DNA from: Escherichia coli
Lineage (GTDB): Bacteria > Pseudomonadota > Gammaproteobacteria > Enterobacterales > Enterobacteriaceae
Length of the DNA stretch: 64,000 bases
NCBI RefSeq assembly: GCF_046105845.1
Contig: NZ_CP151004.1
Strand: one strand, 5' to 3'
Shown: positions 1 to 10,763 of the stretch, in pieces
How the letters are laid out: every line of letters begins with the position of its first letter
How positions within the stretch are numbered: the stretch's first letter is position 1
Notes under the pieces: model-generated
Database searches by the model: none
What the model was told of the DNA's origin: nothing
The model's input: only the letters and a program-made list of their open reading frames with translations
Program-made: the position numbers and the translations under genes

Positions 1-574
1 TTCTACCACCAACAACGTCGAACGCCAAAAACAGGCGGCTTTCTCTGACACTATTTTCGTGGTCGGTACGCGCCTGTTGACCAAAAAGGGTGGCGATATC
101 AAAGATTTCGCCGATCTGAAAGGCAAAGCCGTAGTCGTCACTTCCGGCACTACCTCTGAAGTTTTGCTCAACAAACTGAATGAAGAGCAAAAAATGAATA
201 TGCGAATTATCAGCGCCAAAGATCACGGTGACTCTTTCCGCACCCTGGAAAGCGGTCGTGCCGTTGCCTTTATGATGGATGATGCTCTGCTGGCTGGTGA
301 ACGTGCGAAAGCGAAGAAACCAGACAACTGGGAAATCGTCGGCAAGCCGCAGTCTCAGGAAGCCTACGGTTGTATGTTGCGTAAAGACGATCCGCAGTTC
401 AAAAAGCTGATGGATGACACTATCGCTCAGGTGCAGACCTCCGGTGAAGCGGAAAAATGGTTTGATAAATGGTTCAAAAATCCCATTCCGCCGAAAAACC
501 TGAACATGAATTTCGAACTGTCGGACGAAATGAAAGCACTGTTCAAAGAACCGAATGACAAAGCACTGAACTAA
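1..574 (+). CDS. gltI: Glutamate/aspartate ABC transporter periplasmic binding protein, C-terminal part (5' end lies outside window)
   Basis: Open frame from position 2 with no stop; translation ...DTIFVVGTRLLTKKGGDIKDFADLKGK... matches GltI C-terminus; followed by gltJKL. Confidence 0.9.
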   Translation, partial: STTNNVERQKQAAFSDTIFVVGTRLLTKKGGDIKDFADLKGKAVVVTSGTTSEVLLNKLNEEQKMNMRIISAKDHGDSFRTLESGRAVAFMMDDALLAGERAKAKKPDNWEIVGKPQSQEAYGCMLRKDDPQFKKLMDDTIAQVQTSGEAEKWFDKWFKNPIPPKNLNMNFELSDEMKALFKEPNDKALN

Positions 575-730
575 TTACAAGAACCAGGGGCGGAAATTCC
601 AGCCCTCTCGATTGTTACGTAGCACGGACAGACTATACGCCTGATGGTCGTTCCCCATCGGGCCTGAAAACCGCAATACGCTGGGTAACAATCTTCGAGG
701 GTAGCAGTTAACGCTGCTACCCTCTTTTTT
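570..730 (+). ncRNA. sroC: Probable SroC sRNA locus in the gltI-gltJ spacer (ends at intrinsic terminator)
   Basis: Established knowledge that SroC is processed from the gltI-gltJ intergenic part of the gltIJKL mRNA; 169-nt spacer ends in a strong hairpin plus T-tract; exact 5' end not determinable from sequence. Confidence 0.45.
697..730 (+). terminator. Intrinsic terminator/attenuator between gltI and gltJ
   Basis: GAGGGTAGCAG-ttaacg-CTGCTACCCTC stem followed by TTTTTT. Confidence 0.75.
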
Positions 731-743
731 CTGGAGTAGATTT

Positions 744-1484
744 ATGTCTATAGACTGGAACTGGGGTATTTTTTTACAACAAGCCCCGTTCGGCAACACC
801 ACCTATCTTGGTTGGATCTGGAGTGGTTTTCAGGTCACGATCGCTTTGTCGATCTGCGCCTGGATTATCGCTTTCCTCGTCGGTTCATTTTTCGGCATTT
901 TACGTACCGTTCCAAACCGTTTTCTCTCCGGTCTGGGTACGTTGTATGTCGAACTGTTCCGCAACGTGCCGTTGATTGTGCAATTCTTTACCTGGTATCT
1001 GGTGATCCCGGAGCTGCTGCCGGAGAAAATCGGCATGTGGTTTAAGGCCGAGCTGGATCCCAATATTCAGTTTTTCCTTTCATCCATGCTCTGCCTGGGG
1101 CTGTTTACCGCCGCCCGTGTTTGCGAACAGGTACGCGCCGCGATCCAGTCGCTGCCGCGTGGGCAGAAGAATGCCGCGCTGGCGATGGGTCTGACGCTGC
1201 CGCAGGCTTACCGCTATGTACTGTTGCCTAATGCTTATCGCGTTATCGTCCCGCCGATGACCTCCGAGATGATGAACCTGGTGAAAAACTCCGCCATCGC
1301 CTCGACCATCGGTCTGGTGGATATGGCGGCGCAGGCGGGTAAATTGCTCGACTACTCGGCCCACGCCTGGGAGTCGTTTACCGCCATCACGCTGGCGTAT
1401 GTGTTGATTAACGCGGTTATCATGCTGGTAATGACGCTGGTTGAACGTAAAGTTCGCCTGCCCGGCAACATGGGGGGCAAATAA
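744..1484 (+). CDS. gltJ: Glutamate/aspartate ABC transporter permease
   Basis: 246-aa ORF, polytopic membrane protein, second gene of gltIJKL order. Confidence 0.95.
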
Positions 1485-2158
1485 TGTACGAGTTTGACTG
1501 GAGTTCCATTGTCCCTTCCCTGCCATATCTGCTCGACGGGCTGGTGATCACCCTGAAAATCACCGTCACGGCAGTCGTGATTGGTATTTTGTGGGGCACC
1601 ATGCTGGCGGTGATGCGCTTGTCCAGCTTTGCGCCCGTAGCGTGGTTTGCCAAAGCCTACGTTAACGTATTCCGCTCGATTCCTTTAGTTATGGTTTTGC
1701 TGTGGTTTTACCTGATTGTGCCGGGTTTTCTGCAAAACGTGCTGGGATTATCGCCAAAAAATGATATCCGTTTAATTTCGGCGATGGTGGCGTTTTCGAT
1801 GTTTGAAGCGGCCTACTATTCAGAGATTATCCGCGCCGGTATTCAAAGTATTTCTCGTGGTCAGTCGAGCGCCGCGCTGGCGTTGGGGATGACTCACTGG
1901 CAGTCGATGAAACTGATTATTCTGCCGCAGGCGTTCCGCGCGATGGTGCCGCTGCTGCTCACTCAGGGCATCGTACTGTTCCAGGATACCTCACTGGTGT
2001 ATGTGTTATCTCTGGCCGATTTCTTCCGTACCGCCTCAACCATTGGTGAGCGTGATGGTACGCAGGTTGAGATGATCCTGTTTGCCGGATTTGTTTATTT
2101 CGTTATTAGCCTTAGCGCATCGTTGTTGGTCAGCTACTTGAAAAGAAGGACAGCATAA
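1484..2158 (+). CDS. gltK: Glutamate/aspartate ABC transporter permease
   Basis: 224-aa ORF, start overlaps gltJ stop (ATGA-type coupling). Confidence 0.95.
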
Positions 2159-2883
2159 TGATTACCCTGAAAAATGTTTCAAAATGGTATGGTCACTTTC
2201 AGGTGCTGACCGACTGCTCAACCGAAGTGAAAAAAGGCGAAGTGGTGGTGGTTTGCGGCCCGTCTGGTTCCGGCAAATCAACGCTGATTAAAACCGTCAA
2301 CGGCCTCGAACCGGTGCAGCAAGGTGAAATCACCGTCGATGGCATCGTGGTTAACGACAAGAAAACCGATCTGGCAAAGCTGCGTTCCCGCGTCGGGATG
2401 GTGTTCCAGCATTTCGAGTTGTTCCCCCATTTGTCGATTATTGAAAACCTGACCCTGGCGCAGGTGAAAGTGCTTAAACGCGATAAAGCACCCGCTCGTG
2501 AAAAAGCATTGAAATTGCTGGAGCGCGTCGGGCTTTCCGCACATGCCAATAAGTTTCCGGCGCAGCTTTCCGGCGGTCAGCAGCAGCGTGTGGCGATCGC
2601 TCGCGCATTGTGCATGGATCCTATCGCGATGCTGTTCGACGAACCGACATCGGCGCTGGATCCGGAGATGATCAACGAAGTGCTGGACGTGATGGTGGAA
2701 CTGGCGAACGAAGGAATGACCATGATGGTGGTGACCCACGAAATGGGCTTTGCCCGTAAAGTGGCGAATCGGGTGATCTTTATGGACGAGGGTAAAATTG
2801 TCGAAGACTCGCCGAAAGACGCTTTCTTCGATGATCCGAAATCGGACCGCGCAAAAGACTTCCTCGCGAAAATCCTGCATTAA
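2158..2883 (+). CDS. gltL: Glutamate/aspartate ABC transporter ATP-binding protein
   Basis: 241-aa ORF with Walker [13 protein letters not shown] signature LSGGQQQR, Walker [12 protein letters not shown]. Confidence 0.95.
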
Positions 2884-2890
2884 TCACTCT

Positions 2891-2930
2891 GGCGCGCATA
2901 CCCAATTGCGCGCCATCTCACGCTTTATCG
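2891..2930 (+). terminator. Candidate terminator hairpin downstream of gltL
   Basis: GGCGCGCA-tacccaat-TGCGCGCC stem; weak T-tract. Confidence 0.4.
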
Positions 2931-3000
2931 TTTCGCCCCTCGTATCTGTTACATCCTGGCGTTACCCTTGTCGCAAAGAAGCACACAACAAGGAGCAACA

Positions 3001-3936
3001 ATGGCACTGCCAATTCTGTTAGATTGCGACCCAGGTCATGACGACGCTATCGCAATAGTTCTCGCCCTCGCCTCACCAGAGCTTGATGTCAAAGCAATTA
3101 CGTCTTCCGCCGGAAACCAGACACCAGAAAAAACCTTACGCAATGTTCTGCGTATGCTGACCTTGCTTAATCGCACCGATATTCCGGTAGCAGGCGGCGC
3201 GGTAAAACCGTTAATGCGTGAGTTGATTATCGCGGACAATGTGCACGGCGAAAGCGGTCTCGACGGCCCGGCATTACCGGAACCGACGTTCGCACCGCAA
3301 AACTGTACGGCGGTAGAGCTGATGGCGAAAACACTACGTGAAAGTGCGGAACCTGTCACGATTGTTTCTACCGGACCGCAAACTAACGTTGCCTTGCTGC
3401 TCAATAGCCACCCGGAACTGCATAGCAAAATTGCCCGTATCGTGATTATGGGCGGTGCAATGGGGCTTGGTAACTGGACGCCTGCGGCTGAATTTAATAT
3501 TTACGTTGACCCGGAAGCGGCAGAAATTGTCTTCCAGTCAGGGATCCCGGTGGTGATGGCCGGTCTGGATGTTACTCACAAAGCACAAATTCACGTTGAG
3601 GACACCGAGCGTTTCCGCGCCATTGGCAACCCTGTTTCAACCATTGTTGCCGAACTGCTGGATTTCTTCCTCGAATATCATAAAGACGAAAAATGGGGCT
3701 TTGTCGGCGCACCGCTGCATGACCCATGCACCATCGCCTGGCTGTTAAAACCGGAGTTGTTTACCACTGTTGAGCGCTGGGTTGGCGTGGAAACACAAGG
3801 GAAATATACCCAGGGTATGACGGTTGTTGATTATTATTATCTGACCGGCAATAAACCGAATGCTACTGTAATGGTCGATGTTGATCGTCAGGGCTTTGTT
3901 GATTTACTGGCTGATCGTCTGAAATTTTACGCTTAA
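3001..3936 (+). CDS. rihA: Pyrimidine-specific ribonucleoside hydrolase RihA
   Basis: Translation from [15 protein letters not shown] (nucleoside hydrolase DxDxxxDD motif); AAGGAG RBS just upstream; longer ORF start at 2968 rejected. Confidence 0.9.
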
Positions 3937-3940
3937 TCAC

Positions 3941-3966
3941 TCGCCGGATGACATCACGCCATCCGG
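3941..3966. terminator. Palindromic hairpin in the 44-bp convergent rihA/ybeL junction (probable bidirectional terminator)
   Basis: GCCGGATG-acatcacgc-CATCCGGC perfect 8-bp inverted repeat. Confidence 0.5.
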
Positions 3967-3980
3967 CACCACTCATTTCA

Positions 3981-4463
3981 TTAAGGCTCGAACGGGCGTC
4001 TCTGGAACTGGTCATGACCACATTTCGGGCATAGCGTCAGCACTTCCGGTGTATAGATCGGGAGATGGAAATGACATTTCTCGCAGACCAGATTTCCCAG
4101 CCCTACCACTTCTCCGCTGTGATAAACCCCGTGATGATTGAGGTCCTGGAAAACTTCGCGCCATTCAAGCTGCGTTTTATCGGTGATGTCTGCCAGCTCC
4201 TGCCACAAGCTTTCTTTAATCACCCGCATAAAGACGCTGTCAGACTCTTCTTTCAGGCTCTCTTCATAGCTCATGGCGAACTCTTCCAGGTCACGTCTGA
4301 CAGCTCGCGTCAGCTCATCGACTTCGGTTCGCGTTAACTCCCCTGTTTTTATTACGCGCTCGCGCGCCTGTTCCACCAGTGCGTCGATATCACGTTCGCC
4401 ATTGCGCAGGCGTTCGCTCAGTGACGCGACCAGTTCACGGTAATATTGAGCAACCTTGTTCAT
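3981..4463 (-). CDS. ybeL: Uncharacterized DUF1451-type protein with C-terminal CxxC...CxxC zinc-ribbon
   Basis: 160-aa ORF MNKVAQYYRELVASLSERL...; CEKCH...CPKCGH motif. Confidence 0.85.
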   Translation of the reverse strand: MNKVAQYYRELVASLSERLRNGERDIDALVEQARERVIKTGELTRTEVDELTRAVRRDLEEFAMSYEESLKEESDSVFMRVIKESLWQELADITDKTQLEWREVFQDLNHHGVYHSGEVVGLGNLVCEKCHFHLPIYTPEVLTLCPKCGHDQFQRRPFEP

Positions 4464-4698
4464 CGTTTCATCTCCCGGGTCGTTAACTGACTATAATAAT
4501 AGACGTTCTTTGTTCCTTGCTTTGCTAATACGCCCACAAACTCTGTAAATTAATGTATGAATAATCCGAGCATCATTTCAACGTCGAGTGCGCGAAAGGC
4601 TGTTTTGACGCGGACGTTTGGGCTATGCTATGCGGATCTGAAAAACCACCTCAAACGCTACTTTTGTAGCCGTAATGAAAACAGGACCACTGGCTGCC

Positions 4699-7281
4699 AT
4701 GCAAGAGCAATACCGCCCGGAAGAGATAGAATCCAAAGTACAGCTTCATTGGGATGAGAAGCGCACATTTGAAGTAACCGAAGACGAGAGCAAAGAGAAG
4801 TATTACTGCCTGTCTATGCTTCCCTATCCTTCTGGTCGACTACACATGGGCCACGTACGTAACTACACCATCGGTGACGTGATCGCCCGCTACCAGCGTA
4901 TGCTGGGCAAAAACGTCCTGCAGCCGATCGGCTGGGACGCGTTTGGTCTGCCTGCGGAAGGCGCGGCGGTGAAAAACAACACCGCACCGGCACCGTGGAC
5001 GTACGACAACATCGCGTACATGAAAAACCAGCTCAAAATGCTGGGCTTTGGTTATGACTGGAGCCGCGAGCTGGCAACCTGTACACCGGAATACTACCGT
5101 TGGGAACAGAAATTCTTCACCGAGCTGTATAAAAAAGGCCTGGTATATAAGAAGACTTCTGCAGTCAACTGGTGCCCGAACGACCAGACCGTACTGGCGA
5201 ACGAACAAGTTATCGACGGCTGCTGCTGGCGCTGCGATACCAAAGTTGAGCGTAAAGAGATCCCGCAATGGTTTATCAAAATCACTGCTTACGCTGACGA
5301 GCTGCTCAACGATCTGGATAAACTGGATCACTGGCCAGACACCGTTAAAACCATGCAGCGTAACTGGATTGGTCGTTCCGAAGGCGTAGAAATCACTTTC
5401 AACGTTAACGACTATGACAACACGCTGACCGTTTACACTACCCGTCCGGACACCTTTATGGGTTGTACCTACCTGGCGGTAGCGGCAGGTCATCCGCTGG
5501 CACAGAAAGCGGCGGAAAATAATCCTGAACTGGCCGCCTTTATTGACGAATGCCGTAACACCAAAGTTGCCGAAGCTGAAATGGCGACGATGGAGAAAAA
5601 AGGCGTCGATACTGGCTTTAAAGCGGTTCACCCATTAACGGGCGAAGAAATTCCCGTTTGGGCAGCAAACTTCGTATTGATGGAATACGGCACGGGCGCA
5701 GTTATGGCGGTTCCGGGCCACGACCAGCGCGACTACGAGTTTGCCTCTAAATACGGCCTGAATATCAAACCGGTTATCCTGGCAGCTGACGGCTCTGAGC
5801 CAGATCTTTCTCAGCAAGCCCTGACTGAAAAAGGCGTGCTGTTCAACTCTGGCGAGTTCAACGGTCTTGACCATGAAGCGGCCTTCAACGCTATCGCCGA
5901 TAAACTGACTGCGATGGGCGTTGGCGAGCGTAAAGTGAACTACCGCCTGCGCGACTGGGGTGTTTCCCGTCAACGTTACTGGGGCGCGCCGATTCCGATG
6001 GTGACGCTGGAAGACGGTACCGTAATGCCGACCCCGGACGACCAGCTGCCGGTGATCCTGCCGGAAGATGTGGTGATGGACGGCATTACCAGCCCGATTA
6101 AAGCAGATCCGGAGTGGGCAAAAACTACCGTTAACGGTATGCCAGCGCTGCGTGAAACCGACACTTTCGACACCTTTATGGAGTCCTCCTGGTACTATGC
6201 GCGCTACACTTGCCCGGAGTACAAAGAAGGTATGCTGGATTCCAAAGCGGCTAACTACTGGCTGCCGGTGGATATCTACATTGGTGGTATCGAACACGCC
6301 ATTATGCACCTGCTCTACTTCCGCTTCTTCCACAAACTGATGCGTGATGCAGGCATGGTGAACTCTGACGAACCAGCGAAACAGTTGCTGTGTCAGGGTA
6401 TGGTGCTGGCAGATGCCTTCTACTATGTTGGCGAAAACGGCGAACGTAACTGGGTTTCCCCGGTTGATGCTATCGTTGAACGTGACGAGAAAGGCCGTAT
6501 CGTGAAAGCGAAAGATGCGGCAGGCCATGAACTGGTTTATACCGGCATGAGCAAAATGTCCAAGTCGAAGAACAACGGTATCGACCCGCAGGTGATGGTT
6601 GAACGTTACGGCGCGGACACCGTTCGTCTGTTTATGATGTTTGCTTCTCCGGCTGATATGACTCTCGAATGGCAGGAATCCGGCGTGGAAGGGGCTAACC
6701 GCTTCCTGAAACGTGTCTGGAAACTGGTTTACGAGCACACAGCGAAAGGTGATGTTGCGGCACTGAACGTTGATGCGCTGACTGAAGATCAGAAAGCGCT
6801 GCGTCGCGATGTGCATAAAACGATCGCTAAAGTGACCGATGATATCGGCCGTCGTCAGACCTTCAACACCGCAATTGCGGCGATTATGGAGCTGATGAAC
6901 AAACTGGCGAAAGCACCGACCGATGGCGAGCAGGACCGCGCCCTGATGCAGGAAGCGCTGCTGGCGGTAGTCCGTATGCTTAACCCGTTCACCCCGCACA
7001 TCTGCTTCACGCTGTGGCAGGAACTGAAAGGCGAAGGCGATATCGACAACGCACCGTGGCCGGTTGCTGACGAAAAAGCGATGGTGGAAGACTCCACGCT
7101 GGTCGTGGTGCAGGTTAACGGTAAAGTCCGTGCAAAAATCACCGTTCCGGTGGACGCAACGGAAGAACAGGTTCGCGAACGTGCTGGCCAGGAACATCTG
7201 GTAGCAAAATATCTTGATGGCGTTACCGTGCGTAAAGTGATTTACGTACCCGGTAAACTCCTCAATCTGGTCGTTGGCTAA
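4699..7281 (+). CDS. leuS: Leucyl-tRNA synthetase
   Basis: 860-aa product starting [21 protein letters not shown]; class I HMGH and KMSKS motifs present. Confidence 0.97.

Positions 7282-10427: not shown

Positions 10428-10763
<336 letters not shown>

Follow-up and report, generated by a model that had tools for sequence, protein, structure and literature searches.

The rihA-ybeL junction of Escherichia coli raises the question of whether the short gap between these two convergent genes in the present strain is a place from which genes were lost, or a place that they never reached. In E. coli K-12 MG1655 the same site is filled by seven further genes, the ybeQ-hscC block. Here we surveyed the junction in the window (the whole stretch of 64,000 nucleotides that was analysed), in complete E. 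coli genomes and in related genera. In our reading, the site in the window is still unoccupied and keeps the ancestral layout of the two convergent genes, and we give this explanation as a whole a probability of about 0.8.

The junction is anchored upstream by gltL (2158..2883, + strand; gltJKL-rihA synteny), which is 100% identical to K-12 GltL and is so annotated in the near-identical CFSAN018748, and downstream by leuS (4699..7281, + strand), which is divergent from ybeL. The rihA gene (3001..3936, + strand) encodes a pyrimidine-specific ribonucleoside hydrolase of 311 aa (Pfam IU_nuc_hydro, E 6e-106); its annotated start is the ATG at 3001, the mechanical open reading frame begins at an in-frame TTG at 2968, and the TAA stop codon occupies 3934-3936. 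The ybeL gene (3981..4463, - strand) encodes a DUF1451 zinc-ribbon protein of 160 aa (Pfam DUF1451, E 7e-50), and its stop codon reads TTA on the + strand with its first base at 3981. Identity to the K-12 counterparts is 99.7% for RihA and 100% for YbeL, and the closest relative of the window is the swine isolate CFSAN018748 (99.9% over 1.5 kb). As in K-12, the gap from the gltI 3' end to gltJ carries the sroC sRNA (570-732, + strand; Rfam RF00369, 174.8 bits); it was the only family returned by an Rfam scan of 1-5000, with none in the spacer.

Between the last base of the rihA stop and the first base of the ybeL stop lies a convergent intergenic spacer of 44 bp (3937..3980), just as the sequence-only reading of this DNA had measured it, and it contains a perfect 8-bp inverted repeat. 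The arms are GCCGGATG (3943-3950) and CATCCGGC (3960-3967), each of 8 nt, 100% complementary and separated by a 9-nt loop. That reading was right in calling the repeat perfect and went too far in saying that it makes up almost the entire spacer, of which repeat and loop together cover 25 of 44 nt. The stem begins 6 nt past the rihA stop and 12 nt past the ybeL stop. In the rihA-sense RNA the hairpin spans 3943..3967 (+ strand; 8 bp plus 1 bp) and the 44-nt spacer folds at -14.8 kcal/mol (z -5.0), while in the ybeL-sense RNA it spans 3942..3968 (- strand) with an 11-bp stem including G-U pairs and a 5-nt loop, at -19.5 kcal/mol (z -4.3). The window has a single instance of the inverted-repeat pattern where 0.00 would be expected, and on each strand 0 of 200 shuffles folded equally; for these two reasons the repeat is beyond chance.

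The gene order in MG1655 is ybeL, ybeQ, ybeR, djlB, ybeT, ybeU, djlC, hscC, rihA, the seven genes from b0644 to b0650 forming the block, and 7,976 bp separate the ybeL and rihA stop codons. The sequence-only reading had named all seven genes exactly; its figure of about 9 kb was too large, the true distance being about 8 kb. It would have been undone by rihA and ybeL being neighbours in K-12 too, and there the seven genes intervene. Its statement that the block is missing here also stands, for the 64-kb window has no gene for any of the seven proteins. The similarity of the window to K-12 ends at each stop codon. The two K-12 junction spacers measure 83 bp (rihA-hscC) and 69 bp (ybeQ-ybeL); when the window spacer was compared with them, 259 of 1000 shuffles scored as high against the left one and 12 of 1000 against the right one. 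There is thus no homology on the left; on the right the score is marginal, and since it comes from the stop codon and a run of TTTCATT, homology was not accepted there either.

The block has a GC content of 46.9% against 51-53% in its flanks. In its seven proteins Pfam recognises only Sel1, DUF1266, DnaJ and Hsp70 domains, and no integrase, transposase or recombinase. Direct repeats flanking the block, which the sequence-only reading had proposed to look for in carrier strains, do not exceed chance (longest 7 nt), and its longest flanking inverted repeat is 9 nt, a length reached or exceeded in 17 of 300 shuffles. Compared with a mobile genomic island, the block thus has the atypical base composition and the variable presence, and has neither the recombinase nor the flanking repeats; at the K-12 site no tRNA, integrase, IS element or flanking repeat was seen. 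Against the PADLOC-DB models the only matches were weak ones of Sel1 repeats to PtuA, at E 1e-4 and 5e-3, of which no stretch passed by itself, and the other five proteins had none; from these comparisons nothing credible would mark the block as a known anti-phage defence system. A literature search on strain-level variation of ybeQ-hscC returned nothing on this question, and a broader one yielded only chaperone reviews.

The K-12 block is internally duplicated (locus L001, 4571-10664), with one unit of ybeQ (Sel1) beside ybeR (DUF1266) and djlB (J-domain), and another of ybeT (Sel1) beside ybeU (DUF1266) and djlC. This duplication probably accounts for the two places per genome that the block search reported in most genomes.

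The distribution of the two arrangements was determined in 5,426 complete E. coli genomes. The empty junction, recorded as one contiguous match across rihA, spacer and ybeL, is present in 964 (17.8%), UTI89 and E2348/69 among them, and block DNA in 4,449 (82.0%), which bears out the earlier view of the window as the empty state of a variable accessory locus. The full block (at least 80% of 8 kb) is carried by 3,663 genomes and a shorter form of about 5.2 kb (66-71% coverage) by about 786. Empty and block-DNA genomes add up to 5,413, so the two main classes look essentially exclusive. A 56-nt query with the spacer matched 883 genomes at one place each, including a strain labelled ST38, APEC O78:H4, and UTI89, NU14, E2348/69, NC101 and BEN2908, the last five of which belong to phylogroup B2. 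The short form in strain TUM2830 (L086, 7635-8100) keeps hscC, djlC, a DUF1266 gene and ybeT, has djlB and ybeQ as pseudogene fragments, and has no ybeR; an identical sequence (100% matches) is found in O25b:H4, JJ1887, ZH063, ZH193 and 81009, all of them ST131. In E. coli BH212 (NZ_CP029239.1) the ybeL portion of the query alone matched, at one place, and rihA may be deleted or disrupted there. These counts leave practically no room for the idea that the short spacer is an artefact of sequencing or assembly, such as a collapsed region, since the identical junction is seen in 964 independently assembled complete genomes, with UTI89 and E2348/69 included, and NCBI annotates rihA and ybeL as adjacent in them; nothing spoke in favour of an artefact.

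Which of the two arrangements is older was approached through a scan for YbeL with one genome per species, giving 80 loci, a set to which E. albertii, E. fergusonii and an E. coli representative do not belong. When the K-12 proteins were mapped to these loci, the block was found at the rihA-ybeL site only in Escherichia, in sp. E1V33, E. whittamii and sp. MOD1-EC7003. In about 30 other species rihA adjoins ybeL and none has the block; they include Citrobacter, Salmonella enterica subsp. arizonae, Pseudocitrobacter, Phytobacter, Kosakonia, Kluyvera, Enterobacter, Lelliottia, Trabulsiella and Pseudenterobacter. Many further species have ybeL beside gltL, with both rihA and the block missing. The spacers of the outgroups are made of REP elements. 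Several Citrobacter spacers have the form GTAGGCCGGATAAGACGC...GCGTCGCATCCGGCA(C/A) and end a few bases short of the ybeL stop; the Citrobacter REPs carry a GTAG-type head, GTAGGCCGGATAAG..., and Citrobacter sp. FP75 has a short hairpin, TGCCGGATGGCGATACCATCCGGCAC, colinear with that of the window. In global alignments the window spacer scores 34-35 against the Citrobacter REP spacers (shuffle mean 10-12; 0 of 1000 shuffles equal), and the ...CATCCGGCA arm keeps its position beside the ybeL stop in both. From the outgroup adjacency and the spacer alignment together, the neighbourhood of rihA and ybeL and a REP-type hairpin between them would predate the block. Judged by these comparisons, the empty arrangement is the ancestral one and that of K-12 is derived. 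Against strict orthology of the spacers, the likeness to Citrobacter could come from independent REP colonisation of the same gap, REPs being a repeat family.

One further empty junction comes from a divergent Escherichia genome, contig NZ_JAATUR010000029.1, labelled 'E. coli SCPM-O-B-8794' (L005), which has a homologous 39-bp spacer with a perfect 11-bp stem and a rihA 93% identical to that of E. coli. Its rihA-side flank is 93.5-93.9% identical to E. coli and its ybeL-leuS flank 97%, and it was drawn from the one-genome-per-species collection; the genome is either mosaic or mislabelled.

The outgroup spacers also vary in other ways. In Lelliottia sp. WAP21 (L041, 10481-11132) and Huaxiibacter chinensis (L042, 10481-10946) the rihA-ybeL spacer is 0.5-0.65 kb long and contains units with CATCAGGC every ~93 nt, seven times in the former and four in the latter, which looks like tandem BIME-type arrays. 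In Trabulsiella (L031 and L033, ~10481-10486) there is no spacer at all: the stop codons of rihA and ybeL overlap and share the palindromic TTAA (…TACCGTTAAGGCTC…). Citrobacter sp. MGH106 has a fimbrial island at the site, and there the ~20 nt past the rihA stop (L014, 17332-17355) read GTCTTGATTAAGACCATCG and resemble the rihA-side block junction of K-12, GTCATTGATTAAGATCACCACG (L001, 12429-12477); a fainter version, CATTTATCATTAAG, precedes the REP of C. gillenii. This similarity may reflect a shared older element at the rihA 3' end.

The standing of the window hairpin within the REP family was judged from its sequence. E. coli REPs are by definition imperfect palindromes, 30-40 nt long, whose foot bears a conserved GTAG, and binding and cleavage by TnpA-REP need both the GTAG and a mismatch in the stem (PMC3333891). 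The window hairpin resembles the y and z types of REP and BIME (Bachellier et al.; Ton-Hoang et al. 2012, PMC3333891) in its GCCGGAT...ATCCGGCA core, in its extragenic position between the stop codons of convergent genes and in folding on both strands, and the canonical GTAG-headed REPs in the same spacer of Citrobacter align with it. It differs from them in its length of 25-27 nt (27 with the G-U pairs of the - strand), in having neither GTAG nor CTAC, with CTCG before the stem and CACC after it, and in its perfect 8-bp stem without the two-base mismatch required by TnpA-REP; the mismatch dinucleotides appear as deletions when it is aligned with the Citrobacter REPs. No GTAGGCC or GGCCTAC lies near the spacer, GTAGGCC-type heads in the window being confined to gene interiors, and the canonical REP consensus (TATCMGGCCTAC, at most 1 mismatch) has 0 matches in the whole window. 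The hairpin has one copy in the 64 kb, and one place per genome by the 56-nt megablast query, a kind of search that diverged short repeats escape. Because it is headless, short, stripped of the mismatch dinucleotides and the sole element of its kind in the window, it is best called a decayed REP remnant and not a working member of the family.

Another hairpin of this kind is found inside the block, where the convergent hscC-djlC spacer carries the REP-like TGCCGGATGCGGCGTAAACGCTGCATCCGGCA (K-12, L001 10665-10723; L003 16647-16705; L004 16647-16732; L006 19087-19272). It follows 'TAA ACAC', resembling the 'TAA TCAC...GCCGGATG...CATCCGGCA' of the window. The E. whittamii and MOD1-EC7003 copies are canonical CTAC/GTAG BIMEs, that of MOD1-EC7003 being expanded with CATCCGG repeats. 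This hairpin is either the old rihA-ybeL REP carried within the block or an unrelated copy, and it counts against the preferred explanation.

The arrival of the block was examined at its ends. K-12, TUM2830, E1V33 and E. whittamii share both junction sequences, despite a rihA divergence of 6-8%, and junctions so identical across species point to one old insertion, which we infer to have been a single ancient event. In MOD1-EC7003 extra genes break up the junction on the ybeL side, and the rihA end falls outside the compared locus. The extra DNA there (L006, 10578-12916) adds ~2.5 kb between ybeL and ybeQ, with a 93-aa J-domain ORF (Pfam DnaJ, E 4e-8) followed by ORFs of 326 and 321 aa without a Pfam match; the first two of these three ORFs together resemble a djlC-like gene that has been split (29% identity to DjlC across this stretch).

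The flanks of the junction, taken as 1.5 kb on each side, record how the two alleles have been kept. The empty AST216 and the short-block TUM2830 agree at 99.4% in each flank; between the window and AST216, two empty junctions, identity is 96.8% on the left and 98.1% on the right. Across these 3 kb, five empty genomes and two carriers show 0 fixed differences in the left flank and 1 in the right, 9 nt into ybeL. The flank haplotypes do not follow the allele, which suggests exchange by homologous recombination through rihA and ybeL. Five of the 9 right-flank SNPs between AST216 and TUM2830 fall within the first 72 bp from the junction, a cluster that is the expected trace of a recombination endpoint. 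The flank similarity of the empty genomes to L005 gave no signal of a donor. Taken together, the flanks suggest that the presence/absence polymorphism is old and has been moved between lineages by homologous recombination.

An alternative history is a secondary loss. Under such a loss the ancestor of the window strain had the block, and this was removed by deletion or, more plausibly, by allelic replacement from an empty-allele donor through rihA and ybeL. The block does stand at the site in E. whittamii, E1V33, MOD1-EC7003 and 82% of E. coli, so that the immediate ancestor of E. coli may have had it. Its decay is also in progress in ST131-type genomes, where a 5.2-kb remnant with truncated djlB and ybeQ is left, and both states occur inside one flank haplogroup, the SNP cluster of AST216 and TUM2830 by the junction fitting a replacement as well. 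A simple deletion is nevertheless excluded, as the 44-bp spacer does not derive from the sequences at the K-12 junctions and matches instead the spacers of genera without the block. Allelic replacement in turn needs an ancestral empty allele that persisted somewhere, and it would modify the main explanation more than replace it. We regard secondary loss as a possible but somewhat doubtful course; the data fit equally a window lineage that never had the block and one that regained the empty allele by recombination.

The hairpin itself invites a different explanation, in which it is the site of integration or excision of the block, attachment-like or targeted as a REP, and the 44-bp spacer is its target, either restored or never occupied. 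Some insertion sequences are known to target REPs, the hscC-djlC gap within the block has a hairpin similar to this one, and in other genera unrelated cargo at the same intergenic site gives it a hotspot-like behaviour. Citrobacter sp. MGH106 and Cu233 have chaperone-usher fimbrial operons downstream of ybeL, and Leclercia has a TPS-domain protein with a ShlB-type transporter (two-partner secretion, Pfam-confirmed); K. oxytoca, K. grimontii and Silvania have inserts like that of Leclercia in size and two-ORF layout, and Enterobacter quasihormaechei has an Hcp gene in DNA of 36% GC (cargo at L014 10481-17355; L018 10481-19052; L048 10481-14429; L069, L077, L053 and L055; and L032 5719-7573). 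Yet no copy of the hairpin, whole or half, was found at the block ends of K-12, TUM2830, E1V33 or E. whittamii, the flanking repeats are at chance level (7 nt direct; 9 nt inverted, 17/300 shuffles), the block is without a recombinase, and the hairpin has no GTAG, on which TnpA-REP depends both to bind and to cleave (PMC3333891). This explanation is largely refuted and we consider it very improbable. The suggestion of the sequence-only reading that the hairpin marks the insertion junction fails in the same way, as the hairpin has the same place in genera without the block and is absent from both block junctions of K-12.

A broader proposal can be drawn from the cargo of these genera, namely that the REP-colonised spacer between rihA or gltL and ybeL is a conserved cargo hotspot of the Enterobacteriaceae (the HscC module in Escherichia, fimbriae in Citrobacter, two-partner secretion in Leclercia, K. 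oxytoca and Silvania, Hcp in Enterobacter), that its REP/BIME structure promotes integrase-free insertion, and that the Escherichia alleles are a long-lived trans-species polymorphism. We think it unlikely that this proposal holds as it is worded here.

On the preferred explanation, that of an unoccupied ancestral junction, the history of the site would run as follows. Before Escherichia diverged, rihA and ybeL would have stood tail to tail with a short REP-colonised spacer between them. In an early Escherichia lineage one event would have set a low-GC module of 8 kb, made of hscC and two copies of a unit with a Sel1 protein, a DUF1266 protein and a J-domain protein, flush between the two stop codons, replacing the REP spacer. 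Both alleles would since have segregated in E. coli and other Escherichia, exchanged by homologous recombination via the conserved flanks with no machinery of mobile elements. In the window strain the spacer would contain a single decayed REP, now without the GTAG head and the mismatch in the stem, whose RNA may still form a stable GC-rich stem-loop in both convergent transcripts, acting as REP stem-loops do.

The empty arrangement is in itself already known, being annotated in hundreds of public genomes, and is ordinary pan-genome variation. Its value lies in what it says about K-12: HscC and its partners DjlB and DjlC, the third Hsp70 system of that strain, are accessory, and about one in six sequenced E. 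coli do without them. The strains without this system include classic extraintestinal and EPEC strains (UTI89, NU14, NC101, E2348/69), and in ST131-type genomes it is decaying; this accessory status fits its dispensability in K-12. The view of K-12 as the norm, and of the window strain as one that has 'lost' genes, would also need correcting, as the rihA-ybeL adjacency appears to be the older state. A mildly interesting lead is that one gap receives unrelated cargo across several genera, even though the Escherichia block shows no mobility genes.

The locus can finally be set beside the systems that it resembles. The window hairpin is like an intrinsic (Rho-independent) terminator in being a GC-rich stem-loop directly after the stop codons of two convergent genes, and differs from one in that the spacer has no U/T tract on either strand. 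A terminator consensus scan of 3500-4800 found 0 sites, and a classical U-tract terminator was rejected for this hairpin on both grounds. In K-12 the ybeQ-ybeL spacer has a terminator-like GGGCCG...CGGCCC hairpin with a T-rich tail. REPs within ~15 nt of a stop codon reportedly stall terminating ribosomes. Most likely the window hairpin would serve as a 3'-end stem-loop for both transcripts, a barrier to exonucleases and a block to read-through between the convergent genes. Transcription termination and mRNA stabilisation have been named among the hypothesised roles of REPs (PMC3733652).

The K-12 HscC system, an Hsp70 with its J-domain partners DjlB and DjlC, occupies this very position on the chromosome, flanked by the same pair of stop codons, and the whole module is missing from the window. 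In K-12, HscC works with DjlC and DjlB as partners and hscC is dispensable for growth, its loss raising the sensitivity to Cd2+ and UV; among prokaryotes the occurrence of HscC is sporadic, which suggests horizontal transfer (PMC8215388). With the ybeQ-hscC module absent, the window strain would be one without a third Hsp70 system.

The locus also resembles a wider class of loci in the E. coli pan-genome. Insertion hotspots without an integrase reportedly lie between conserved core genes there. The rihA-ybeL site shares with these hotspots a strain-variable stretch of low-GC accessory DNA between syntenic core genes, and different cargo at the same site in related genera. It differs from them in that the alternatives in E. 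coli are just three, namely empty, full and decayed.
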